Shown here: one piece after another, positions 553-14,060 of the stretch
Layout of the letters: each line of letters begins with the position of its first letter
Position numbering within the stretch: position 1 is the first letter of the stretch
Assembly (NCBI GenBank): GCA_013285995.1
Contig: JABDGN010000003.1
Span: forward strand, 5,317-69,316
Length of the DNA stretch: 64,000 nt
Direction: 5' to 3'
Source of the DNA: Gammaproteobacteria bacterium
Lineage (GTDB): Bacteria > Pseudomonadota > Gammaproteobacteria > JABDGN01
The notes under the pieces: generated by a model
Seen by the model: only the letters and a program-made list of their open reading frames with translations
Databases searched by the model: none
Told to the model about the DNA's origin: nothing
Translations under genes and position numbers: made by a program

Positions 553-603
553 CATCCCCCTTTAAAAAAGGATCCCCCTTTGGTAAAGGGGGCAGGGGGA
601 TTT
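553..603. repeat. family D C5/G5 hairpin element (ccccctttaaaaaaggatccccctttggtaaagggggcaggggga)
   Basis: Same ...aaagggggcaggggga(tt) terminus as copies at 16261, 43633 and 49745. Abuts the stop codon of the 602..961 gene. Confidence 0.75.
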
Positions 604-961
604 ATTTTTCTTCAGCCATCATTCTTGCCGCCACGACAGTAGATTCATGTATCGCCAATAACGTCGCACCCGCATGAAAAGTCAAAAATCGCAAATCGTT
701 TTCTAAAATCAATGCGACTCCCTTGGCGTGAATCCCAATTTGTTTGGCAATCATGCTGATAGTGAATTGCCCCGTCGCTAAAATCTCGCCTAAAGTTATT
801 AACCAATTGACTTTGCCGTTCAGCAATTCATCACCGAGCCAGCATTGTGGGGTACTGCCGGGTTTGAATTCGGGGTGAACGGTTGAAGGTTTTGCGTCTG
901 CTTCGTAAACAATAGTCATTGAATTAATCACATCTATATTTTCAATTTCTGTAGTCATCAT
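602..961 (-). CDS. hypothetical protein (no confident family assignment)
   Basis: ORF 602..1000. An internal ATG at 961 is preceded by GGGAGA, so start placed there. Weak, unconvincing resemblance to the CinA C-terminal domain. Confidence 0.55.
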   Translation of the reverse strand: MMTTEIENIDVINSMTIVYEADAKPSTVHPEFKPGSTPQCWLGDELLNGKVNWLITLGEILATGQFTISMIAKQIGIHAKGVALILENDLRFLTFHAGATLLAIHESTVVAARMMAEEK

Positions 962-1188
962 TATTTCTCCCATTTTGTTTGGCGAGTTAAACACATACAA
1001 ATGTTTACTCTTGCTCTGGTTACCTTTTAGTTACACGTGTGTATGAGCACTTTGACACGGCATATATTTCTTCCTTGCTGGCAAGTAAAACATTGACATC
1101 CTTGAAATACCAGCTGATAATAATCAGTACTATTTATAATTTAAAATTATAGCAATAATTTTATGTGTTAATTTTGAACAGGTGGATT

Positions 1189-2544
1189 ATGTTTACTCAG
1201 AATAACGAAGGAAAAGGTCTGGTAAAAGTTTATTGGGCTGATGTACGTGATCATGTTGCAAAAATAGAACCAAATTTTGCGAGATTAGTTGATACTTTAA
1301 ATCCTGATAAAACTTTTCCATTATATTTAGCTTATTATCCTTATGGGGCTTTAAAAGGTGATACAGAAAGTACTTTGTTACCTACTGTAGATGGGGGGTA
1401 TTATCGTGTTTCAGATCCAGATGCACCCAAAGATGTGGCTAAACATTTAGGATATAGCAAAGACTATGCTCCCCTGGCAATGTTACTTGATAAAAATTTT
1501 GAGCTATTTATGGATTTGAAAGCTGAAAAAATTAGCATTCCATGGATAATTTATTCGCCTGGCAGAATTTTCCCCTTTAACAGAATATTAAACCGAAAAA
1601 AACAACGTATCTATGCTCCTAACGGTGTTTTGACTATGACATCTGGTTCACGTTCTGTTTTTATGTTACCTAATATTGGCTGTTTTACAAATCATGTGAA
1701 TTTACAAGGTGATTTCAATGTAAAACTTCCACCGGCAAAATCTTTATATGAGCACTGGGCCATTTTTAAAGCTATTCTGGATAGTAACGTTATTCCTTGT
1801 GATTGGCGCTCTTGTATTATGTATTTTTCAGAAAAATGGCTTAGTAAGTTGCATGAAGATAAAGCGTGGGTGCCACTAAAATTATATTTACATGAGCTGG
1901 CTTGGGAATATTCAGAATATGATCGGAACAGAATATATTATGAAACAATTTTCTCGATGATACAAAAACAACGCAACTTGAAACCTAACCCTTATTTAGC
2001 AGATACTGCTCGCCACCTCTTTACTTCAGCTCTAGGCATTACGCCGGCTTATGCTCCGGTCTGCGATGAAAATGCTTTACCTTTTGAGATTTTGCAAAGA
2101 GCATTTGTTGAATCGTATGGGTTAAAGAAATATTTTCCCACGATTATGCAGCCTACACATTTTTATTTTGAAGAAGATAAACACCCTGTCTACTACTCTT
2201 TACAAAATCCTTCAACATATGTTTTTTCACCTAAATCCAGGCAAGTTTCCAGTACCTTATTTGAAATGCGAGAATTAGCAAATATCATTAAAGTATTTTC
2301 TGAAGAATTATCGAAAAGCAGCTCACCTTGCGCTGATACCGTTATGCGCCAAATAGCACATGACGTACAATTTAAATATTTTCATAATAAACCTGACAGA
2401 CATCATACTGTGAGACTTTCGGGTGAGATTGCTACATTGGATAAACGATTTGGTATGATTAACGCAAAATATAAGTTGCCAGATGCTGAATTTGCAGGAG
2501 ATGCACCTTTTGTACGGGGTTGTATTAGCATAGGTTCAAGTTAA
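1189..2544 (+). CDS. hypothetical protein, ~450 aa, no recognisable motifs
   Basis: Long ORF from 1165. ATG at 1189 is preceded by AGGTGGA. Its 3' end overlaps the convergent MFS gene by 9 nt. Confidence 0.7.
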   Translation: MFTQNNEGKGLVKVYWADVRDHVAKIEPNFARLVDTLNPDKTFPLYLAYYPYGALKGDTESTLLPTVDGGYYRVSDPDAPKDVAKHLGYSKDYAPLAMLLDKNFELFMDLKAEKISIPWIIYSPGRIFPFNRILNRKKQRIYAPNGVLTMTSGSRSVFMLPNIGCFTNHVNLQGDFNVKLPPAKSLYEHWAIFKAILDSNVIPCDWRSCIMYFSEKWLSKLHEDKAWVPLKLYLHELAWEYSEYDRNRIYYETIFSMIQKQRNLKPNPYLADTARHLFTSALGITPAYAPVCDENALPFEILQRAFVESYGLKKYFPTIMQPTHFYFEEDKHPVYYSLQNPSTYVFSPKSRQVSSTLFEMRELANIIKVFSEELSKSSSPCADTVMRQIAHDVQFKYFHNKPDRHHTVRLSGEIATLDKRFGMINAKYKLPDAEFAGDAPFVRGCISIGSS

Positions 2545-3756
2545 TCTTTTATAGTAATAACAACCTACAAAACATACCAGTCCGAGAAACCCACTGACAG
2601 TCCATACCATATCGCCTCCTAAATGGTGGTAAATAAATCCACCTAAAGCAGGACCGCTCACCATCCCTAAGGCATAAATGGCTTGAAAAAGCCCTAAATT
2701 ATAACTTTGATCTTCTTCTCGGCTATATTGATAAACTAATAATTGTGCCATTGCAAAAAAACACATCTCACCTAAGGTATAAACAACACACGCAATAATA
2801 GCAAGACTAAATATAACGGAGAAAGTTAACATCAGCATACCCAGCCCCATTAATAAAGCCCCTATTCCAACGATGAGTATTTTATTAAAACGGAGTAAGT
2901 GGCTTGCTAAAAACGTTTGGAATAAGACGATAATCAAAGGATTTATAGTAAATAATAGCCCAATTCCTTTAGTACCTAATTCGGGAAAGAGATCGTGAAC
3001 ATACACTAAATAAGTGGTGCTGCGCTGAGAAATAATAATACCTACCAGAAACAAACAGAATAAAACCAGCCAAATTATTTTTATATTTTTTAATTGAGAT
3101 TTATTTTTATTTTGATAGTTAACTGCAGTATGCTCTATTGATGACAAAAACTGTATGGGGGTTTTCAGATGAAAAATAAAATAAATCAGAGATAGAAATA
3201 ACAATATACCTGCCAAGTAAAATACATCTTCAAAACCTCGCGCACCTAAAAAACTCACTATTACGCCAGCAAGTCCAATACCTAGATTGGCAGTAGCATA
3301 TAATACGTTAATGGTCTTAAATTTTTCGGCTTCATGACTTTTACAAGAAGTAAGCACCCAAATATAATTGGCTGTTTTAAAGCCATAAGTTGTCACACCT
3401 AAGATAAATAAATCAACAAATAAAAAATTAACAGTATGAAATCGTGCGAGAGCAAAAAATGCTAGAGTCTTGCATAAGAGTGAAATAATGGCAATGGCAT
3501 TGGAAGGAATATGCTGAGAAAGTTTACCACTGACATAACCTCCAATAACTGTCCCTATGCCATACACTGAAATCATCAGTCCTGCCAGGGCAATATTAAG
3601 ATGTAATGTTTTTACAAAATAGAAGGATAAGAAAAAAACCACGCCAGCAGAAATATTATTAATAAAACTAACCGCTATTCTTTGCCAAAAAGCAATTGGT
3701 AACCCATGATAACTTTGAAAATATGTTTTTATACCTGTTTGCAAATAACTTAGCAT
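2536..3756 (-). CDS. MFS-type transporter (putative exporter)
   Basis: 406 aa with about 12 hydrophobic helices and the two-halves architecture typical of major facilitator proteins. Directly downstream of the methylase gene. Confidence 0.75.
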   Translation of the reverse strand: MLSYLQTGIKTYFQSYHGLPIAFWQRIAVSFINNISAGVVFFLSFYFVKTLHLNIALAGLMISVYGIGTVIGGYVSGKLSQHIPSNAIAIISLLCKTLAFFALARFHTVNFLFVDLFILGVTTYGFKTANYIWVLTSCKSHEAEKFKTINVLYATANLGIGLAGVIVSFLGARGFEDVFYLAGILLFLSLIYFIFHLKTPIQFLSSIEHTAVNYQNKNKSQLKNIKIIWLVLFCLFLVGIIISQRSTTYLVYVHDLFPELGTKGIGLLFTINPLIIVLFQTFLASHLLRFNKILIVGIGALLMGLGMLMLTFSVIFSLAIIACVVYTLGEMCFFAMAQLLVYQYSREEDQSYNLGLFQAIYALGMVSGPALGGFIYHHLGGDMVWTVSGFLGLVCFVGCYYYKRLT

Positions 3757-3785
3757 GCTTACAACCTGTAATATAAACTCTCAAT

Positions 3786-4586
3786 TTACTTATTGAGTGG
3801 AATTTCAATACCAAGGGTTTTTAACATGCCCTTCTTGATTTGCGATCTCTTAGCAGGAGGCACATATAATGTTGCAGTTCGCGAAATAATAGTACTGGGT
3901 AGCTGCTCTAAAGGAAATTTATATATTTTCGCTTCAAAACCTGTATATTGAGCTGCTTCATATAATATCACCTCATGATTTGAAAGATAATATTTATTTA
4001 AATGTTGTACCAAAGCATGCAATGCTTTAGAGTTTTTTTGGTCGATAGTGTGCTCAAGAATGCCGATAATACCTACTTGCCATAATAACAAATGGCTATT
4101 GGGATCCCACTTTCTGCCATATACAAGAAAATCCGTTGCTTCAAATGATTGACATCCGCAGGAGCCAGGATTAATTAATAGATCGGCAAATAAACAATCT
4201 TCTGCGGAAATACCAGGTAAAGCTCTTGCATCATAACCTACTTTTCTTGCTTGAATTACGGCATTCAAACCTGGTTCAGCGAAAACAGTAGGATGTCCAT
4301 ACAAAACCACACAGACATTTTGCTGTTTATATAAAGTTTCTAAAATATAATCTGTAATGGCTTTATAGCAGTCACTGCGTAATGGATATTTGATATAAAG
4401 TGGGTCTAAAGATTCAGCAGTGGAATTCGTTTTCTGAACCCACTGCTGCATAGCAGGTTCATTAAGTAAATATAAAACTTTATCTGCACGCTCGATATAA
4501 AGTTTTGCTTCAGTGGTAAGATGAGATAAAAATTTGATGCCTGAACCCACAAGAACCAAAGAGCCAGGGATTTTTTTATTCTGCAT
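3786..4586 (-). CDS. tetrapyrrole (corrin/porphyrin) methylase-fold SAM-dependent methyltransferase
   Basis: N-terminal GSLVLVGSGI glycine-rich motif and a YGHPTVFAEPG (GDP-like) motif, as in the TP_methylase/diphthine-synthase/RsmI fold. 266 aa. Confidence 0.65.
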   Translation of the reverse strand: MQNKKIPGSLVLVGSGIKFLSHLTTEAKLYIERADKVLYLLNEPAMQQWVQKTNSTAESLDPLYIKYPLRSDCYKAITDYILETLYKQQNVCVVLYGHPTVFAEPGLNAVIQARKVGYDARALPGISAEDCLFADLLINPGSCGCQSFEATDFLVYGRKWDPNSHLLLWQVGIIGILEHTIDQKNSKALHALVQHLNKYYLSNHEVILYEAAQYTGFEAKIYKFPLEQLPSTIISRTATLYVPPAKRSQIKKGMLKTLGIEIPLNK

Positions 4587-4648
4587 AGTGTATTCTGTTC
4601 ATAAAAAATTAAAGGGAAGAATACAGCAACTATATTTTAAATATCAAA

Positions 4649-4837
4649 CTAGAATCGGCACGAGGCTTGTTCATTAGCAAAATATGCTTGATGAGGGAAC
4701 ATTTTTTTTAGTAAATTAGGCTCATTTTTTGAAAAGGCTTCTTTTATTTCTTGTGGTTGATTGTTAATGAGAGTATTTAATTTCGGATCGAAGGTAGGCA
4801 TGTTCACAAGTTGTTCAAGCAAGGTAAGTATGTTCAT
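4649..4837 (-). CDS. small 62-aa peptide, paralog of the 4924..5121 product; candidate modified-peptide precursor
   Basis: MNILTLLEQLVNMPTFDPKLNTLINNQPQEIKEAFSKNEPNLLKKMFPHQAYFANEQASCRF is conserved with its neighbour over about 55 residues and diverges in the last 6-9 residues. Confidence 0.5.
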   Translation of the reverse strand: MNILTLLEQLVNMPTFDPKLNTLINNQPQEIKEAFSKNEPNLLKKMFPHQAYFANEQASCRF

Positions 4838-4923
4838 ATGATTTTCCCAGTGTTTGCCATAACCCAGAGCGGGAAAGGCTTTTATCTTTTCTCATTTAAT
4901 GTGAATCAGAACCATTGTAACTT

Positions 4924-5121
4924 TTATATTCTATCACTTAAAAACACAGCATGCTCATTAGCAAAATATTCTTGCTGAGAAATTGCTCGTTTTAATAGGC
5001 TGTGGTCATTCACTAAAAAAGCGTTCGTTATTTCTTTCTTTTGTTGATTAATTAAAACTTGAGTCACAGGCTCAAAATGGCAACAAGCTGCAAGTTGTTC
5101 AAGAAAATTCAGAACCGCCAT
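4924..5121 (-). CDS. small 65-aa peptide, paralog of 4649..4837; candidate modified-peptide precursor
   Basis: MAVLNFLEQLAACCHFEPVTQVLINQQKKEITNAFLVNDHSLLKRAISQQEYFANEHAVFLSDRI. GGGGA lies upstream. First gene of a minus-strand operon. Confidence 0.5.
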   Translation of the reverse strand: MAVLNFLEQLAACCHFEPVTQVLINQQKKEITNAFLVNDHSLLKRAISQQEYFANEHAVFLSDRI

Positions 5122-5208
5122 TATTTTATCCCCGATTTTTTAAATATGCCAGATATTATAGTACGAAAAATTATAGGAAAACTATTTTTTATAATATATA
5201 TTGCTTAA

Positions 5209-5721
5209 TTAATAAACAGATAGCATAGAACACACTGGATGTTGCTTAATTAAATGACCCCCATGTCTAGACCACTGTTTAATCTTCTCAAGCAGGCGGG
5301 CATTCTCTTGTGCCCGGCGGCTGAGTTTTCCTCTGCAATAGCGATAATACCCACTACACGATACCTTCAATACACGCGCCATCTCCACAACCCGCCATGC
5401 TTTCACATGTGAACGCATAAACTCATATTTTTCCTTTACGGTGATGAGAAGATGGCTAGCGCTTTTTTTAATATATCGCGCTCGCGTCGTAATACTTCAT
5501 TTTCCCGTTCTAATTTACGTACCCGTTCATCTTCTACTTTCGGGTGACCACTGCCCGGAAAAGCCCCTTTGCCCCCCATTTTTTTAAGCCCTCACCCAGC
5601 ATTGCAAGGTCGATAGACCAATTCCCAGGTCATGGCTGGCCTGACTCACCGATAATTTTTGCTCTCTTACTAACTTTACAGCATTTAATTTAAATTCTTT
5701 ATCATATTTTCTTTTTGGCAT
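5209..5721 (-). mobile_element. IS3-family insertion sequence remnant (frameshifted orfA plus truncated orfB)
   Basis: Minus-strand orfA MPKRKYDKEFKLNAVKLVREQKLSVSQASHDLGI... is preceded by GAGGAG but broken by stops. orfB N-terminal fragment is MRSHVKAWRVVEMARVLKVSCSGYYRYCRGKLSRRAQENARLLEKIKQ (HTH_21-like). The element is only about 0.5 kb. Confidence 0.7.
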
Positions 5722-5825: not shown

Positions 5826-8800
5826 TCACGACGTGGTAGAAAGCAAGCTTTGGCAGTAGATGGAGGCGAAGGGCCACCAAAAGGCGAGCACGGGGGCGGT
5901 GGCGTTATCGCCGATGGCGGTGATGTTGGTGCCTTTGGTATTGTCCAGTTTGGTATTAACCATCCCCTTGAAGTTAAACAGTGCATTGGGATTATTTTGC
6001 TGAGGCCCTAAAATGCCGATATGAGTGTATACAGTATCCATATTGATGCAACCGATTAAGCCATTGGCAGTAAAATTATTGACATACGCATTTAAAAAAG
6101 CGCACCAGTTGCCGGGAGCTAAAGCGCGGTTATTGGGTGGTAAAGCTATGCCACCTAAATTAGGTGCCGAAATATTCGAAGGACAAATCGCGCCGAGGGA
6201 ACCTGTCGACCGGGTGCCGCCGCTGGTGCGGATAGTGCGACTGCTGCTAGCACTATCGCTGCTGCCGACCGTGGCCCAGCCAGCAGCTGCGCTGGTGAGC
6301 TCATTGAACGCGCTGGTGGCGTAGGCATAAGCGCTGCTGGTCGCTTGCATGGCGCTGGTGGCGGCATGGTAGGCTGAGCTTTGGAGGCTGCCGAGGGAGC
6401 TGGCGATTTGTTGCACCACAGTGGTGCCGCCACCTATTGGCTGCGTACTGGCCGCGGGGAGGGGGGCTGTACTTACCGGCACCACCGGCCCACTGGTCGG
6501 CGCCGCGCCGGCGGTGGCGCTGCCAAACAAGGTGCTGACTACACCCATAACCGCTTGATACGCCGTGCTCCCTGCAGCTTGTGCCGTTGTAATCGCCTGT
6601 TGCACCAGGCCCACATCGCCGCTGCTCAGTGCTGTGGTGGTCGCCTGAATAGATTGAGCGCTGTCAGAGGCCGATTGTCCGCTCAAAGAAAAAGACGTTT
6701 GCACTTCGTTAAGTTTGGTATTTAAAGTGCTGACGGCCGACACTTGCGCTGGCATTGTCCCTAAAGTGCTGCCGGCGGCCCGGATTGCGGCGGTGGTCCC
6801 GGCCCCGGTGCTGTCAACTGCTATATTATTGCTGGAGCCAAATTCCAACACGCCAGCCGCAATGGCCGTGCTTTGTTGGCCGAGGCTGCTCATAACAGCG
6901 CCCAAACTGCTGCCGAGTGCCGCGACCTGAGTGCTGCCAGCCCCCACTTGCTCGCTGGTTACTTGCGCATTGTTTAAACCTTGCTCTGCTGTACTGCCTG
7001 CTGCGTAATTACCGCTGCTTAATTCCATTTTTACGGTTGTTACCGCGGTGTCGGCTGACTTCCCGGTACTGACAGCGTTGCCGGTAATCGTACTGGAAGC
7101 CAGTCCGGTGGCCATGGCTGAGCTTGCCACGGCCAGGCCAGTTGCCGCCGTACTTTGAATGGCCGCCGTGGCGACGGCTTTTTGCGTGGAATTTAACACA
7201 CCGGTACCTTGAGTAGCCCCGCTGGAGCGTGCCAGGTGTTCACTTAAAACCGGCAACGTCGACACGGCGGATTGGATCGGCATTATGGATTGCGTTGTTG
7301 AGCTGATGAGCGCAGCAGTTGAGTCGCCCTTGCTTGAACCAGTGGCGGCCACGCCACCAGCCGAACTTTGTTGCGCAAGATTGACTCCGCTGCTTGCCGC
7401 GCCTATAGCGCTTTGTGATGATTGCAGCAACGCCTGGCTAGTAGAAAATACATTATTAGCGGCCGTCGATTGACGCGGACCCAAACCGCCGGTGGTGCCA
7501 CTACCACCGGTGCTTACACTCATGCGGGCGAGTTGCAAGCTGGTGCCGGCGTTGTTAATCATTGCGCCGGTGCTTTGGATCGCATTTTGCACCATTTCTG
7601 TCGAAACCACGCCGGGGCCAGTGCTTCCGACAGGTCCCGAGCTGCCTGCGGCCGGAGCACCGGCAGCGTCACTTGAAACTGCAGCGGGGCCAGTGCTTCC
7701 GGCAGGTCCCGAGCTGCCTGCGGCCGGAACGCCGACAGCGTCACTTGAAACTGCAGCGGGGCCAGTGCTTCCGGCAGGTCCCAAGTTGCCCACGGCCGAC
7801 GATCCAACCTCACTGCTGCCTGCACCACTCGTTCCGCTGCTTGCTGCCAGAGCGAAGCTGATACTCGCGGAGCTGGCAGCAAGCCAGGCGCTGCCGGTCG
7901 CTGCCGCTGTTTGCACCGCGACGATTTGTTGCGTGCTACCGCTTGGTTGCAGAGCCAGTGATGAAGCGTAAGATCGAAAACCCGTGACCAGGGCCGTCCA
8001 GGTAAGGGGTTGCAGCGTTGAAATCGGAACGCCCGAACTTCCCGAACTCCCCGGACTAACAACTCCTTCGGAACTTCCCAAACTGCCCGCGCTCGAGGCA
8101 ACCTGACTGGCGACAGTTGCGCTGGCCCCGGTAGAAACATCGGCCAGGCTAAGTGCGGTGTTAGTACTAGCCACAAAACGATTAGCTTGTGATGTGCGTT
8201 GTAAAGTGGCAAGTCCCGTCACCAACTGTTCGGTACTTAAATTAGGCGTGCCACGGCCGCTCGTGCTTCCCGAGCGCGCTAACACGAGTCCGCTGCTGCC
8301 CGTGGGTGGCGCGCCGGTATTTCCCGTGCGCACTAACACGGGTCCGCTGCTGTCGAATACTCCCGTGCTGTAGCTTGCGACGTGGGCTGCCAAAGCGCTG
8401 CTACTGCCAGCGGCAACTTGAATCGCCCGACTGCTTTGCGCTGCACCGGCACTGGTTGCCAAGGCACTGCTTAAGGCGGCAGCGGGCAGATTGCCGGTGC
8501 TGGCACTTTTTCCGGTACTTGATAAGATATTAGTTATAACAGACTGAGTTGAAACACTATTTTGTTCAATATTTTGCGCGGTACTGGCAATCATTTCGCT
8601 GCTGACTTGATTAGCTGTTGCGGCTGTGCTCACGGCTCCTGCCACGCCTGCCGCGCTGGACGCAGTATTTGCAATGGTAGTCGCATCATAAGGATTTTGG
8701 GCGAACGAGCTGCTGAGCGCATCGACTCCGGCGCTACTGGCAGAGCTGGCCTGGCTCGCTGCGCTGCTTGCTTCATGAGCGAAAGTAGAACCCCCCACGC

Positions 8801-11800
8801 CGGAGGCCGCGCCAAAGGCGAGGGAAGTTTCTAATACCGCACCGGCAGCTTGATGGGTCGTTGCCACTGCCACCGCACTGCTGGAAGGGGCATTGTCTGA
8901 GCTGGCAAAATTGCCGCTACTTCCTAAATTACTTTGTGTGGCCTTCGCCAGTGCCAGCGTGCTGCCTGGCAAGCCTGTGCCGCCGGTATTAGCCAATGCT
9001 GTTTGAGCACTCGTATAAGCTATGAAGGCAGTGCTTCTGGCTTGATTAGCAAGATCAGTCAATGCCGCAGCGGTGGCTATTTGTTCCGATGTTTGCGCGA
9101 GAATACTGGCGCTGGCAGCTGCACTGCTCGCGCGAGCAGCATCGCGCACAGCGGTACTGGCGCTTTGCAGGGCCAGAAATACATCACTCGTTGCGCCGGT
9201 ATTCATCAACACCGCTGCTGCTGTGCTGGCTCGCAATGATTCATGGGAAGTTTGTAAAGCCGTCGTACCCGCGCTGCCAAAATTAAGCGTTGGTACTACA
9301 CTTTGCAAAGTAGCCTCTGCCGTTTGCCCGGCCGCCACCGTGGGGTTGCCGGTGCTGAAGGCATTGCTTACGGTAATGACCGGCTCCATTGCAGTGGCAA
9401 GACTAGTCGCGAGCAGCGGAATTTGCGCGTGCGCGCTGGAAGCTTGCTGCACAATAGCTACACCGCTGCTCAAGCCTGGGCTTTGGCCCCCGCTAGTCGT
9501 TAATTGAGCTTGCAAACTGGTTTGGGCTTGATTTGCATCGCTTAAGAAGCTAGCGCTGCTTTGCACAATTTGTTGATTAGTGGTGTGGAGGGTCGTAGCG
9601 CTCGCGGCCATCGCCGCCGCCGAACTAATATTATTTCCCGTTCCATTAGCCCCGGTAGAACCGGCCACCGGTAGAGCGCCTCGCGTACTTACAGCCGGCG
9701 GCAACGGTATGCTGGCACTGCTGCCCGCAGCAAAACTAAGTACTGCCTGCAGAGTTTGGCTGGCAGTTAAAGCTAAATTAGCGCCACTGCTCGCATTTTG
9801 ATTTGCCAATACCAGGCTAGTGTAAGCGGTGCTGCTCGGGTGACTGCGCCCGGCATGTTGAAAAAAATAAGCGTTGGGATCGCCCGTTAATTCGCCGGTG
9901 CCCAAAGTTGCCAGCGCATTTTGCGCACTGCTATAAGCTGCTTGCGTGTTATAGAGGGCGGTAGAAAGATCGCCGCTTCGCAAAGCGTTACCCGCCGTAT
10001 TCAAATGGCTAAGCGCCGTGCTGGTATATTGATTACTGGTATCAATTTGCTGCAAGATAACTTGTTCGGTGGTAGATAAATCAGTTCCCGTGCTTTGCAA
10101 GTTAGCACTGCTTTGGGCTACGAAAGTGGCTGCTTGCTGGCTGCTTGCCAGCGCCCGTCCGGTACTGCTCAACACTTGATATTCTCTGCTGGTAGAAGCA
10201 TAGCCACCACTTGCCAGCTGGTTTTGTAAAGCCTCCCCTGTACTGTTAAGAGAGCTACCGATTTGAGTTGCCAAGGCTTTGGTACTGTCTGCCGAAGGAA
10301 TGGAATCACTACTGGTGAGTTTTAATGCGCCACTTAAACGTCCAAGGGTAGTTCCTTGTAATTCCAGGGAAATTGCAAAAGTGCTCAAGACTGTAGGTGA
10401 AATAAGACCGCTGCTGCTGCTAAGGCGCACTAAGTTAAGAGTTGCCAACAGGGACGTTACGCCACCCGTAATGGCTGCTGGTAAGGCGCTGCTACCGCTC
10501 GGGTTAACATCACTCGTGTTGTCGTTTCCATTACTGCTGCTACTGCTATGCAACATTTGTCGTAAAGTGCTGGCGGCCTGGCTGCTTTGTGCGGCAAAAG
10601 TTCCGCTCGGTACTTGACCGGTTTCTTCGGCACGCGCTGTACCCGCCAAACTATTCGCGATGGCAGTGCTTTGGTCTGCTAACGCGGAGGACGCCGCGAC
10701 GGGGACACTGCCGCCTGTGCCGGCAGATTGGGTGGCCTGGATGAGTGCGGCCTCAGTGGTTTTGATGCCACTTTGGAATTGGCTAATGCTTTGCTGAATC
10801 TCGTTGGTGACGGGGGAAGGGCCAGTGCTGCCAGTGGCCGAAAGAAACAGTTCGGGAAAAAAAGTGCTGGCGGTTTCGCTGGTGGCGGCCAGGCTTTCAG
10901 CAGCGATCCCAAGTGTAGTGGTAAAAATAGCCGTCGATAAATCTTTAGCGGAGTGTGCAGTTGCTTTAATGCTGGTACTGGTGTAGTCAGTGCTGTCAGC
11001 TTGCTCGCCAAGATCGCCGGTGAGGCGCCTACCAGCTTGTGTAGTGGGCGCACTGGCAGGAAAGGGTGATGGCGGCGGCGGTGATGGCGACGGCGGTGAT
11101 GGCGATGGGGGTGATGGCGGTGCCATACCATTGCCACTGGTTGGCGCAGCAGAAGTTGGTGCAGTATTATTGCCAGCAGCTGGCGGTGGTGGCGACGGGG
11201 GTGATGGCGGTGCCATACCATTGCCACTGTAACCTGCTTGGCTGGTTGGCGCAGCAGAAGTTGGTGCAGTATTATTGCCAGCAGCTGGCGGTGGTGGCGA
11301 TGGTGATGATGGCGGTGATGACGGCGGCGATGACGGCGGTGGACACCAATCTCCACCCCAACCTCCATGCCTGTTAACGCATTCATTGCCAATAATTGCC
11401 GCCGCTGGCAGCAGACATAGGAGCCAGCATAAATTCCACAGCTTTGGGTTACACGAGCGCGATTTCTTTTTTTGTGGAGCTGCACCCATTGTAGTTGCAG
11501 TTCCGGCGGCTCCCTTCCGGAAGTTTGCCATATAATCACGCACTTTCTGCGCCACCGTATTACCGGCGGCACTACCCATTGCAGTTGCAGTTCCCGTGGC
11601 TCCATCTGCAGTTCGCATGGCTTCATCCAGGAGCCTTACCATATGCTCACGCACTTGTTGATTCGCTACATCGGCGGCATTTGTTTGCCTAACAATAGGT
11701 TTTTTTTGCTTTAATTCTCTTTGTATATTAACCGCCCGATTCTTTGCTTGACTGGCATCCTTCAATAAAGCAGCTTTAAGCCCCTCAAGCGGGCGATAAT

Positions 11801-14060
11801 ACTCTGCTGGATAAAGTTGTTCAATTTTATCTCCTTGCATGCTAATAAAGGCCAATAGTGTATCGGCATCGGAAATATATTGCGCTGTACATTTTTCACA
11901 ACCGAGTTCTTGTAAAGTGGGAATGGCGACTCCTGTCGCCGTTTTTGTTTCTGCCAAGGTTTGTGCTAAAAGTGTTGCTGCATCAGCAGCTGTGCGTGGC
12001 GAAAGAGCAAATTGAATAGTGTGAGTTTGTTGCCAAGTCGACAATTGGCTATTTAGCCCGGCAAATTGACTGAGATACCCTTGAATATCATTGTCGATGG
12101 CCGTAAAACTCATGGGTGCAACCTTGGCCCAATTGGTTTTTTGCGTCGCAATATTCTCTGCGCTTTGTTTTATAGCCGCTGCAATCTTTTCTAGTTCTTC
12201 AAGTGGCGTGACAGCGTGCGATCCACTGGCAGCGGGACCTGCAGCATTTGCTTCGTCTGCGGGCGTTGTTCCCGCAATAGGTGGAAGCCGCACTCTGGCG
12301 AGATTTCCCCCTGCTATGGGCATTTCACCATTAGTTGGTGGGAACTGTGAATCGAGAGTAAAGCCTTCAGGGGGAAACGTTTGACCTTGGCTGGGTGCTA
12401 CGGCAGGAGATAATGCAGTGGGATCTGATATGCCCGCTGGGGTTCTGACAGTTCCTTCTTCTGGATAAATATTTTCTACTGGGGTTGGCGTTTGTGGAAA
12501 GAATTCTAGCGTTGCTGATGCAGCAGCGGGTTTAAGTACCGGACTGCGCCCATCGCCCAGATTGAGCGTCTCCCGTGGTGGCGGAGTTTGTGGAGATAAT
12601 TTGCGTGATGCTGGTACAGGAGTAGGCAAAAGCTTGGGTACTCCGCTCGGAGCTTTTTTCTCGCGCTGAGCTTTCAGAGCGAGCAATTTTTCTTGCTGTT
12701 GTTTAGTCTTGGCATACTTGCGCCAGGCTTGCGCGATAATTTTTTGTGCGGTATCTTCGTCCAATCTTCTGCCGCTAGTGTGCAGTCTCCCTGCAGCAGA
12801 GCCTGGTTGCGGAGGAAGTGTGCGGGGCGAGTTCTCTGGAGGGTTTTGTGTGGGATCTCCTTCCAATCTTCTGTTGCTAGTGTGAAATCTCCCTGCAGCA
12901 GAGCCTGGTTGCGGAGGAAGTGTACGGGGCGAGTTATTTGGAGAGTTTTGTGTGGGATCTCCTTCCAATCTTCTGTTGCTAGTGTGAAATCTACCTGCAC
13001 CAGGGTCTGATTGCTCTGATTGCAGAGGAGGTGTGCGGGGCGACTTATCTGGAGGGTTTTGTGTGAGATCCACCTCCGGTTTTTTAGTGCTAATGTGAAG
13101 TCTTGGGTTATGGCGAAGAAGACCGTCATCTAACCTGATTTCAAAGGGTTCATCGTCGACTCCTTGGGGTCGAATTTCTTTTTTTCGCCCGCTGGGGTTT
13201 TTACCCGCAGGATTTCCTGTTTTTGTGTTTCCCAGCTTGTGGGCAAATACACGAGTGGCATCCTCATCCCCGTTAGACTCTTCTCCATCCAAGGCGTTAG
13301 CTGCAGCAGCAGCAGCTTCTTCTTCTGCTTTTTTTCGCTTTGCTTCTTCTTCTGCTTTTTTTCGCTTTTCTTGCTCCTCCGCTTCGAGATTTTGCTGACG
13401 TAATTTTTCTTGCAAATTTCTTATCGTAGCCTGGCTTTTAAAGCCACCGGGTGCAGCGCCGGGATTGACTAAAGTCATAGCACCGGAGCGCAGCATTTCC
13501 CTATGAGCAGGAGGCAAATTTCCACTACGAGTGGGAATGGGGCTTGCTGGTGGGGCTCCTGAGCGTGCTACCTCCAGATAACTGGGCGCTTTTGGCGGCG
13601 GCGAAGCTGACGGAGACACATTTGGCGGTGGCGAAGGGGGTGGAGACACATTTGGTGGCGATACCGTGGGCGGCGAATCACCAGGCGAAGAATTGCTTGA
13701 GGTAGGACTCACACCACTAAGGTGAGGTGCGGCGGAACCAGACGGAATAGGAAGTGGGGCTGAAGTTGAAGTAAGTCTCTTTTTTTGTGCAGCAATATAT
13801 TCCAAAGCCCCCGCAAGATCCGGTGCGCGGGCGTTTGAGGCGTTTGGCAGTACCGCTCCAAGATCCGGTGCGGGGGCGTTTGAGTCGCTTGGCAGTACGG
13901 CGGGAGCGGGAGCAGGCTTAAGGCCAAAATGATTGCTGGGCTTGAAAATATTCCGGGTGTTACTCGGCAGTACCCGAGTTGGCTGTGTGCTACTCGGCGG
14001 TACCCGAGGCCGTACCTGAACCCCGGGGTCTGGACCAACTCTGCCGCCACGATCTAACAT
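5826..14060 (-). CDS. giant 2744-aa low-complexity repeat protein (P-rich N-terminal region, central TM-like segment, about 1500-aa S/T/A/G/Q-rich region, Cys-containing C-terminal domain)
   Basis: Uninterrupted 8.2 kb ORF. GC content is far above neighbouring genes. Contains about 105-bp tandem repeats (approx 12760..13080) and roughly 100-bp PPSPP-coding direct repeats (approx 11100..11330). A hydrophobic stretch LWNLCWLLCLLPAAAIIG lies at approx 11385..11445. Confidence 0.8.
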   Translation of the reverse strand: MLDRGGRVGPDPGVQVRPRVPPSSTQPTRVLPSNTRNIFKPSNHFGLKPAPAPAVLPSDSNAPAPDLGAVLPNASNARAPDLAGALEYIAAQKKRLTSTSAPLPIPSGSAAPHLSGVSPTSSNSSPGDSPPTVSPPNVSPPPSPPPNVSPSASPPPKAPSYLEVARSGAPPASPIPTRSGNLPPAHREMLRSGAMTLVNPGAAPGGFKSQATIRNLQEKLRQQNLEAEEQEKRKKAEEEAKRKKAEEEAAAAAANALDGEESNGDEDATRVFAHKLGNTKTGNPAGKNPSGRKKEIRPQGVDDEPFEIRLDDGLLRHNPRLHISTKKPEVDLTQNPPDKSPRTPPLQSEQSDPGAGRFHTSNRRLEGDPTQNSPNNSPRTLPPQPGSAAGRFHTSNRRLEGDPTQNPPENSPRTLPPQPGSAAGRLHTSGRRLDEDTAQKIIAQAWRKYAKTKQQQEKLLALKAQREKKAPSGVPKLLPTPVPASRKLSPQTPPPRETLNLGDGRSPVLKPAAASATLEFFPQTPTPVENIYPEEGTVRTPAGISDPTALSPAVAPSQGQTFPPEGFTLDSQFPPTNGEMPIAGGNLARVRLPPIAGTTPADEANAAGPAASGSHAVTPLEELEKIAAAIKQSAENIATQKTNWAKVAPMSFTAIDNDIQGYLSQFAGLNSQLSTWQQTHTIQFALSPRTAADAATLLAQTLAETKTATGVAIPTLQELGCEKCTAQYISDADTLLAFISMQGDKIEQLYPAEYYRPLEGLKAALLKDASQAKNRAVNIQRELKQKKPIVRQTNAADVANQQVREHMVRLLDEAMRTADGATGTATAMGSAAGNTVAQKVRDYMANFRKGAAGTATTMGAAPQKKKSRSCNPKLWNLCWLLCLLPAAAIIGNECVNRHGGWGGDWCPPPSSPPSSPPSSPSPPPPAAGNNTAPTSAAPTSQAGYSGNGMAPPSPPSPPPPAAGNNTAPTSAAPTSGNGMAPPSPPSPSPPSPSPPPPSPFPASAPTTQAGRRLTGDLGEQADSTDYTSTSIKATAHSAKDLSTAIFTTTLGIAAESLAATSETASTFFPELFLSATGSTGPSPVTNEIQQSISQFQSGIKTTEAALIQATQSAGTGGSVPVAASSALADQSTAIANSLAGTARAEETGQVPSGTFAAQSSQAASTLRQMLHSSSSSNGNDNTSDVNPSGSSALPAAITGGVTSLLATLNLVRLSSSSGLISPTVLSTFAISLELQGTTLGRLSGALKLTSSDSIPSADSTKALATQIGSSLNSTGEALQNQLASGGYASTSREYQVLSSTGRALASSQQAATFVAQSSANLQSTGTDLSTTEQVILQQIDTSNQYTSTALSHLNTAGNALRSGDLSTALYNTQAAYSSAQNALATLGTGELTGDPNAYFFQHAGRSHPSSTAYTSLVLANQNASSGANLALTASQTLQAVLSFAAGSSASIPLPPAVSTRGALPVAGSTGANGTGNNISSAAAMAASATTLHTTNQQIVQSSASFLSDANQAQTSLQAQLTTSGGQSPGLSSGVAIVQQASSAHAQIPLLATSLATAMEPVITVSNAFSTGNPTVAAGQTAEATLQSVVPTLNFGSAGTTALQTSHESLRASTAAAVLMNTGATSDVFLALQSASTAVRDAARASSAAASASILAQTSEQIATAAALTDLANQARSTAFIAYTSAQTALANTGGTGLPGSTLALAKATQSNLGSSGNFASSDNAPSSSAVAVATTHQAAGAVLETSLAFGAASGVGGSTFAHEASSAASQASSASSAGVDALSSSFAQNPYDATTIANTASSAAGVAGAVSTAATANQVSSEMIASTAQNIEQNSVSTQSVITNILSSTGKSASTGNLPAAALSSALATSAGAAQSSRAIQVAAGSSSALAAHVASYSTGVFDSSGPVLVRTGNTGAPPTGSSGLVLARSGSTSGRGTPNLSTEQLVTGLATLQRTSQANRFVASTNTALSLADVSTGASATVASQVASSAGSLGSSEGVVSPGSSGSSGVPISTLQPLTWTALVTGFRSYASSLALQPSGSTQQIVAVQTAAATGSAWLAASSASISFALAASSGTSGAGSSEVGSSAVGNLGPAGSTGPAAVSSDAVGVPAAGSSGPAGSTGPAAVSSDAAGAPAAGSSGPVGSTGPGVVSTEMVQNAIQSTGAMINNAGTSLQLARMSVSTGGSGTTGGLGPRQSTAANNVFSTSQALLQSSQSAIGAASSGVNLAQQSSAGGVAATGSSKGDSTAALISSTTQSIMPIQSAVSTLPVLSEHLARSSGATQGTGVLNSTQKAVATAAIQSTAATGLAVASSAMATGLASSTITGNAVSTGKSADTAVTTVKMELSSGNYAAGSTAEQGLNNAQVTSEQVGAGSTQVAALGSSLGAVMSSLGQQSTAIAAGVLEFGSSNNIAVDSTGAGTTAAIRAAGSTLGTMPAQVSAVSTLNTKLNEVQTSFSLSGQSASDSAQSIQATTTALSSGDVGLVQQAITTAQAAGSTAYQAVMGVVSTLFGSATAGAAPTSGPVVPVSTAPLPAASTQPIGGGTTVVQQIASSLGSLQSSAYHAATSAMQATSSAYAYATSAFNELTSAAAGWATVGSSDSASSSRTIRTSGGTRSTGSLGAICPSNISAPNLGGIALPPNNRALAPGNWCAFLNAYVNNFTANGLIGCINMDTVYTHIGILGPQQNNPNALFNFKGMVNTKLDNTKGTNITAIGDNATAPVLAFWWPFASIYCQSLLSTTS

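Follow-up and report, generated by a model that had tools for sequence, protein, structure and literature searches.

Organisation of the locus

The window analysed here is a 64,000-nucleotide stretch of contig JABDGN010000003.1 (Gammaproteobacteria bacterium, assembly GCA_013285995.1), and the subject of this report is a five-gene module at positions 1189–5121 which, in a bacterium of Legionellales type, very probably encodes a "split" borosin system similar to type IV. Borosins are the class of peptides made on ribosomes and modified after translation (RiPPs) whose tailoring enzyme has the tetrapyrrole (TP) methylase fold; they are represented by OphMA in fungi and by the bacterial split type IV pair SonM/SonA in Shewanella (PMC8429565). 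The module consists of the following genes.

1189–2544, plus strand: X451, 451 aa from the ATG at 1189, convergent to the operon
2536–3756, minus strand: major facilitator superfamily (MFS) transporter, 406 aa, putative product exporter
3786–4586, minus strand: borosin-type peptide backbone alpha-N-methyltransferase (MT), 266 aa, without fused borosin-binding domain (BBD) or core
4649–4837, minus strand: peptide B, precursor paralog, 62-aa open reading frame (ORF)
4924–5121, minus strand: peptide A, precursor, 65-aa ORF

An initial annotation of this DNA had placed four co-directional minus-strand genes with short spacers at 2536–5121, coordinates which we confirm. The spacers measure 86, 62 and 29 bp in the order peptide A, peptide B, MT and MFS, and the precursor genes lie 62 and 337 bp upstream of MT. 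X451 and the MFS gene overlap by 9 bp at their 3′ ends; an alternative start for X451, a GTG at 1165, would give a product of 459 aa. The defining feature of the type IV split arrangement, an MT free of fused BBD and core with separate, adjoining precursor genes, is present. Homology and synteny establish, at the level of sequence, the organisation of the cluster: a stand-alone MT with a predicted intact active site, adjacent leader–core precursors, and an MFS gene and X451 which are conserved within the clade.

The methyltransferase

The 266-aa enzyme matches PF00590 in Pfam (E=3.5e-16). Its only significant relatives among all PDB sequences are SonM (7e-51), dbOphMA (4e-48), OphMA (7e-44) and MroMA (3e-42), and no non-borosin TP methylase (cobalamin, siroheme, RsmI or diphthine) appears among the PDB matches at E≤0.01. 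It is 41% identical to SonM, the 266 residues aligning end to end with the 263 of the latter. Six SonM residues known to be important from mutagenesis or structure (Y58, R67, Y71, Y93, F99 and W166; PMC8429565) correspond, in that order, to Y64, R70, Y74, Y96, F102 and W169 in the pairwise alignment, all six being identical. The motifs YGHP and DCLFAD, on which the antiSMASH/RODEO borosin rules draw (bioRxiv 10.1101/2021.12.24.474128), can be read from the translation as YGHPTVF and EDCLFADL; the same YGHP/DCLFAD definition is found in the NMT_2 hidden Markov model (HMM). Judged by its PDB relatives, residues and motifs, the enzyme is a predicted borosin peptide alpha-N-methyltransferase. A single-sequence scan of GTDB genomes with this protein found no close relative.

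It might be argued that MT is instead an ordinary methylase of the tetrapyrrole (cobalamin/siroheme), RsmI or diphthine-synthase type beside which the small ORFs are incidental; the PF00590 match would fit this, as would public annotations of its homologs as "uroporphyrinogen III methylase" or "YabN/MazG family." Assignment at the tetrapyrrole level fails, however, since the NCBIfam models CbiE (14.8 versus a cut-off of 92.9 bits) and YabN (48 versus 525 bits) score far under their thresholds, and the PDB matches, together with the complete retention of the borosin-specific residues and motifs, point the other way. Nor do the neighbourhoods agree with it: conserved small peptides adjoin the enzyme and its homologs, whereas tetrapyrrole genes occur neither around the window MT nor in related loci. 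We consider this alternative already effectively refuted, with next to no chance of being correct.

The initial annotation had recognised a RiPP-type operon with leader/core precursors and a TP-methylase-fold tailoring enzyme, which borosin homology and conserved synteny bear out. It had also supposed that no described RiPP class employs such an enzyme and that the system might be new; that claim falls, borosins being this very class and MT a clear homolog of SonM.

The precursor peptides

Over 58 residues peptides A and B share 47% identity (BLASTP E=3e-16), and they diverge only in their last 5–9 residues, in agreement with the earlier description of paralogous peptides with a shared body and divergent ends. 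Peptide A has a helical leader (residues ~1–50), a junction YFANE and the tail HAVFLSDRI; peptide B ends in …FANEQASCRF and matches the family HMM at E=6e-24.

While a word-indexed homology search with peptide A recovered nothing but the query, an exhaustive search of representatives among 1.84 billion proteins with a profile of peptides A and B recovered 109 cluster representatives at E≤1e-3, and the precursor family thus comprises at least 109 clusters. Members are most often 62 aa long, nearly all being of 60–70 aa and matching end to end, from which it follows that peptides A and B are more than chance ORFs. The leader (M..i.FLEQLA…H…LI..Q…IK.AF..ND..LLKK.IS) and the junction ([YF][FL]A[ND][EP]) are conserved. 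The tail which follows is very short, rich in beta-branched and hydrophobic residues, and forms the end of the protein, as in SHVVQI, TKVTLY and RTTIFDL. A hydrophobic C-terminal core is accordingly visible in the sequences as these three strings and as AVFL in peptide A, each at the extreme C-terminus. Peptide A (…FANEHAVFLSDRI) fits the tail motif loosely and peptide B does not, and the tail of the latter may be a variant or decaying core. The division into leader and short C-terminal tail proposed in the initial annotation stands, but the hypervariable core that goes with it does not, since from the sequences the family tail is motif-like.

The peptides resemble no known unmodified protein family, one of the checks that the initial annotation had called for. 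Searches for Nif11 (PF07862) and related leader models, another of them, gave no match at E≤10 for the peptides of the window or of L002, the nearest related locus with genomic context, and NCBIfam likewise gave none.

In L002 a precursor paralog of 80 aa (4451–4693) has a longer tail which includes a second hydrophobic stretch (…FADEVEIMQISDKQDFSNDMTYFVVVQD). Two cores, or longer products, may be a feature of some family members.

Relationship of the leader to the borosin-binding domain

The canonical BBD is a LigA-like bundle of five helices. In the metagenome loci precursors with an obvious canonical BBD flank the MTs that belong to other borosin clades, and 36 sequences from these flanks were used to build a canonical BBD profile. 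The precursor family profile aligned with it collinearly over 48 columns in hhalign (family residues 3–50 against BBD positions 3–56 of 59) with a score of 21.9 and P=5.8e-4, although with an hhalign probability of only 29%. Among 200 column-shuffled decoys none attained 21.9 (mean 8.4, sd 1.7, maximum 13.6), and a reversed alignment scored 7.7; circular-shift decoys were dropped as a null because they leave the aligned block intact. The BBD HMM in turn matched 10 of the 109 family representatives at E≤0.01 and none of 109 reversed decoys.

The elements in common are helix 1 (FLEQLA in the family, FLIELA in the BBD) and the last helices (AFLVNDHSLLKRAI and LLLAGDPQAIRNAV, respectively). The middle segment of the BBD, NP..VM..AGL[ST], is absent from the family leader. 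The best reading of this calibrated profile–profile comparison is that the leader would represent a divergent, shortened BBD.

Conservation of the module

In L002 an MT 65% identical to that of the window is accompanied by two family peptides, an MFS gene and a convergent gene whose 451-aa product is 67% identical to X451. Two sets of loci were used to follow the arrangement further. Anchoring on MT gave 80 metagenome loci, of which those with enough flanking sequence (13 + 22) were counted. In the 13 whose MT is at least 53% identical to the window enzyme, X451 is convergent in every case, the MFS gene comes directly after MT in 11, and a family peptide stands immediately upstream of MT in 12. 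The corresponding figures for the 22 loci with an MT of at most 52% identity are one, none and one. The contrast in X451 (13/13 versus 1/22) and in the MFS gene (11/13 versus 0/22) makes the module specific to the clade of the window MT and X451 a part of it, as the initial annotation had suspected of the convergent gene.

Anchoring on X451 gave 52 loci from species-representative genomes, almost all of them Legionellales, including Legionella longbeachae, L. bozemanae, L. anisa, L. qingyii and L. rowbothamii as well as many metagenome-assembled genomes of Coxiellaceae; in the five Legionella species, which are cultured, the MFS gene and X451 are both present. Thirty-two of these loci extend at least 3.3 kb downstream. 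MT was found in 24 of the 32, 23 times in the same convergent layout, and an MFS gene occupied the convergent position in 22. A family peptide was present in 21 of the 32, and lay directly upstream of MT in 21 of the 24 loci which possess the enzyme.

Another borosin clade, with MTs 43–47% identical to that of the window, has a conserved 116-aa ORF (MDISDVTIEFFSDSEEHL..ILESQLKHIRDVDVYLIEPKD…) immediately after the enzyme (loci L103, L104, L106–L108, L110, L111, L113, L114, L116, L119, L123, L129 and L130), and in some of these loci a 66-aa ORF (MFPxVLYFTDFxPEDxYWEF…) lies upstream. The two look like another clade-specific partner set.

The transporter

The 406-aa protein matches MFS_1 in Pfam (E=1.7e-31). 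The superfamily assignment in the initial annotation is upheld; its twelve transmembrane helices are only roughly consistent with a crude hydropathy scan, which produced 14 hydrophobic segments with some overlap between them. Its resemblance to MFS families of drug efflux is weak, with all scores far below the cut-offs. At L002 (2932–4152) and at another related locus, L013 (12008–13189), the precursor genes are flanked by a further MFS gene of this type, and the transporter is, on these two loci, duplicated in part of the clade.

The fifth gene, X451

X451 has 467 homologs and no match in Pfam, NCBIfam, PADLOC or the PDB sequences, nor did we find any description of it in the literature. Conserved Cys, His, Asp and Ser residues occur in the protein. 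Its predicted structure includes a beta-roll like that of cyclic-nucleotide-binding domains (~10% identity). Unlike the cyclic-nucleotide-binding and CRP-FNR proteins, no member of the X451 family matches Pfam cNMP_binding at E≤1, neither a phosphate-binding cassette nor a C-terminal helix-turn-helix was detected, and an extra C-terminal half of ~250 residues has no fold match; on the model, the likeness is one of fold and not of membership. The idea that X451 supplies a BBD in trans was considered and dropped, as hhalign found nothing.

Some loci (L019 and L031) have X451 and the MFS gene together but no MT, and the X451 loci which lack MT offered no consistent functional clue. In two of these MT-less loci a conserved ORF of 138–146 aa (M[AP]A[LM]EPLCQILGINP…) adjoins X451 (L010, 5702–6118; L019, 5391–5831). 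A more distant homolog (43% identical) converges on three genes at L041 (7335–10956) which by eye include ATP-grasp-like and dehydrogenase-like products, and one of 33% identity (L049, 7340–8779) is followed by what appears, by eye, to be a POT-family-like peptide transporter with a WERYAYY motif.

Several roles might be suggested for X451. As an enzyme, it might be the peptidase still missing for leader removal or maturation, or might carry out a second tailoring step on the methylated tail; as a partner protein, it might present the precursor to MT and so offset the shortened binding domain, or might couple production to a small-molecule signal by way of its cyclic-nucleotide-binding-like beta-roll. 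We tentatively put forward, as a proposal whose odds are somewhat worse than even, that X451 is a dedicated and previously undescribed component of borosin biosynthesis, in one of these capacities and together with MFS export of a short oligopeptide, and that it marks off a separate, chiefly Legionellales subtype. If so, the MFS pump would export an unusually short N-methylated oligopeptide.

Comparison with known borosin systems

The closest characterised system is SonM/SonA of Shewanella oneidensis (PDB 7LTC, 7LTE). It shares with the window a stand-alone MT of ~265 aa, the two being 41% identical with the tested catalytic and "lock" residues kept, and a separate, adjoining precursor of ~65–70 aa whose leader is all-helical and whose C-terminus bears a short hydrophobic stretch, similarly spaced from the last helix of the leader. 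Neither cluster includes a recognisable protease. The window leader differs from that of SonA in being ~6–10 residues shorter and in having no NP..VM..AGL[ST] segment, and it is missed by Pfam LigA. The tails of the window family end 2–6 residues past the hydrophobic stretch, where SonA carries SHGNGD instead. A dedicated MFS transporter and X451 are features of the window, neither having been reported for the son cluster, and there is no GGDEF gene near the window module.

The fungal fused borosins (OphMA, dbOphMA and MroMA; omphalotin pathway) have a homologous MT domain (E from 4e-48 to 3e-42) and presumably the same chemistry, namely iterative backbone amide N-methylation of a C-terminal core dependent on S-adenosylmethionine (SAM). 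In these, MT, clasp/BBD and core are fused in a self-modifying protein of ~400 aa, and a prolyl oligopeptidase macrocyclises the product; in the window the parts are separate genes and there is no macrocyclase.

Legionellales borosin MTs are already known from published genome-mining surveys. In one, 81 of 746 type IV sequences came from Legionellales and their MT domains diverged from the rest (bioRxiv 10.1101/2021.12.24.474128). In the other, a RODEO study, a sequence similarity network cluster consisted mainly of Legionella sequences, often near integrases, and a Legionellales subset "lacking a BBD" was recognised through the custom HMMs BoroLegA and BoroLegB (Lee et al., bioRxiv 10.1101/2024.01.09.574750). 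Clusters of this subset resemble that of the window in the bacterial order in which they occur, in the stand-alone MT and in having short precursors which canonical BBD models miss. Their precursors nevertheless belong to a different family with the N-terminal motif MNLLDKIE[KQ]AVGNEY (HMM MNLLDKIEKAVGNEY…). BoroLegA, which we rebuilt from the supplement of Lee et al. and which recovered its own consensus (1.8e-17) and a published Coxiella precursor (1.6e-7), matched neither window peptide, nor any of 35 family members from related loci, nor any of the 80 metagenome loci. As far as position 15, the part of BoroLegB covered here, the motif is the same as in BoroLegA (bioRxiv 10.1101/2024.01.09.574750). 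What may be new in the present work is the definition of the precursor family, the evidence for a degenerate BBD, and the way X451 and the MFS gene accompany the cluster closely and specifically in this clade. We found no paper which characterises a Legionellales borosin.

A precursor from Aliiglaciecola resembles the N-terminus of the window family; as it was chosen after a motif search, we mention it as a lead only.

Proposed pathway

By analogy with SonM/SonA, MT, which is probably a homodimer, would bind the ~50-residue helical leader, which is probably a divergent, shortened BBD, and with SAM would then methylate between one and three backbone amide nitrogens of the short, hydrophobic tail at the C-terminus. 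The target in peptide A would be AVFL (residues 58–61), and in its relatives typically SHVVQI, TKVTLY or RTTIFDL. If the SonA alignment is taken in its ungapped register, K44 of peptide A coincides with K51 of SonA. AVFL lies 14–17 residues past K44, and the methylated L63 and I65 of SonA lie 12–14 past K51, so that the predicted target geometry of the two precursors is similar.

The remaining steps have less support. The leader might be removed by X451, the only conserved gene left unassigned, or by a housekeeping peptidase, and the short C-terminal N-methylated peptide thus released would leave through the MFS pump. Shewanellamide A, the only bacterial borosin product characterised, is a linear 16-mer which derives from the C-terminus of SonA and has two backbone N-methyl groups (PMC10549244). 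In register with it, the product of peptide A would be at most ~17 residues long (QQEYFANEHAVFLSDRI). Use of an MFS pump may imply something shorter than this. The substrates of MFS exporters such as BacE and YdeE are of dipeptide size, which would agree with a product far shorter than shewanellamide A.

To the low probability of the family–BBD match must be added several other points which weigh against the borosin interpretation. Pfam LigA misses the peptides of the window and of L002, yet it detects SonA (1.7e-5) and four of the five canonical BBD controls tested. Comparison of single-sequence or small profiles with SonA alone by hhalign was insignificant, and neither phmmer nor a four-sequence peptide profile retrieved SonA from the PDB. 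A single-sequence AlphaFold2 model of peptide A (three helices, pLDDT 74) gave generic three-helix-bundle matches in Foldseek, again without retrieving SonA. The tail of peptide B (QASCRF) is without the hydrophobic V/I-rich motif of most members. X451 occurs without MT in 4 of 25 close-homolog loci, and what it does is thus not bound strictly to the enzyme. Family searches of the module proteins revealed no protease, and MFS pumps usually export small molecules and not peptides of 15 residues or more. Methylation, cleavage and export are moreover all inferred for the window MT clade, from sequence and from the son system.

A different account of the same genes is that the ~62-aa proteins are functional small proteins, the tails of which are backbone-methylated in place and thereby resist proteolysis or have their binding tuned, with X451 as a partner or sensor and the MFS protein moving something else. 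The want of a protease in the module is consistent with this, as are the strong conservation and uniform length of the entire 50-residue leader, the predicted ligand-binding-type beta-roll of X451, and the loci in which X451 and the MFS gene keep company without MT. Conserved leaders are, however, normal for borosin precursors, and the position of an efflux-type MFS gene directly after MT in this clade, and in none of the others, fits the export of a pathway product. The son cluster, too, is without a protease and yet gives a cleaved product (PMC10549244). On balance methylation in place seems improbable, and we continue to favour a cluster for a cleaved and exported borosin.

Backbone N-methylation results in protease-resistant, membrane-crossing peptides, and to our knowledge borosins are the only ribosomal route to it. 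No borosin product has been characterised from the Legionellales, an order which comprises intracellular pathogens and symbionts of amoebae. The window locus and its relatives define a compact module of five genes (one or two precursors, enzyme, pump and X451) which, through its presence in culturable Legionella species, can be tested directly. From it one could learn how so minimal and divergent a leader is recognised and what removes it, and whether Legionellales secrete short N-methylated peptides during interaction with their hosts.

Genomic setting

Upstream of the operon lie two further features.

5122–5208, minus strand: non-coding region, possible operon promoter, read from the sequence
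5209–5721, minus strand: relic of an IS3-family insertion sequence transposase, three short ORFs, flanking the module and outside the system

The first of these contains two TATAAT-like boxes and a GGGGA Shine-Dalgarno sequence ahead of peptide A; a promoter consensus scan of the region found 23 sites against 20.3 expected, which is not above chance, and a terminator scan did no better than chance. The IS3 relic comprises ORFs of 69, 47 and 45 aa, one of which matches HTH_Tnp_1 (E=1.9e-8), and its fragments were also called on an independent Logan assembly of the contig. The G+C content of the module is 0.35–0.38 as against about 0.42–0.46 for most of the window, that is, 6–9 points under background. 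The initial annotation was correct on both counts, the IS3 relic and the AT-rich stretch.

At 217–450 on the minus strand, ~750 bp from X451, there is a 77-aa CsrA paralog (PF02599, E=4.6e-26; NCBIfam CsrA, 7e-32). Extra copies of CsrA in Legionella are typical of integrative mobile elements, and together with the low G+C and the insertion sequence relic this suggests an island.

Such surroundings raise the question of whether the locus is what is left of a horizontally acquired island in decay and has lost its function in this organism. The fragmented IS3 element, the CsrA paralog and the depressed G+C could be read in this manner, as could the atypical tail of peptide B and the related locus L003, which retains only a 29-aa peptide fragment and has no X451. 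Against this, all five genes are intact and full-length by comparison with their homologs, the catalytic residues are kept, and the gene order is maintained across dozens of genomes. We give decay very little credence.

An ORF of 132 aa at 602–1000 (minus strand, divergent from X451) was considered as a module member and rejected as it is not conserved: it has no family match, and no homolog was found in 55 related loci. It is either lineage-specific or not a gene.

Directly adjoining the IS3 relic, a single ORF of 2744 aa occupies 5826–14060 on the minus strand. It is of low complexity, rich in Pro, Ser, Ala and Thr, and with a G+C content of 0.52–0.59 against the ~0.42–0.46 of the background its composition is opposite to that of the AT-rich borosin module.

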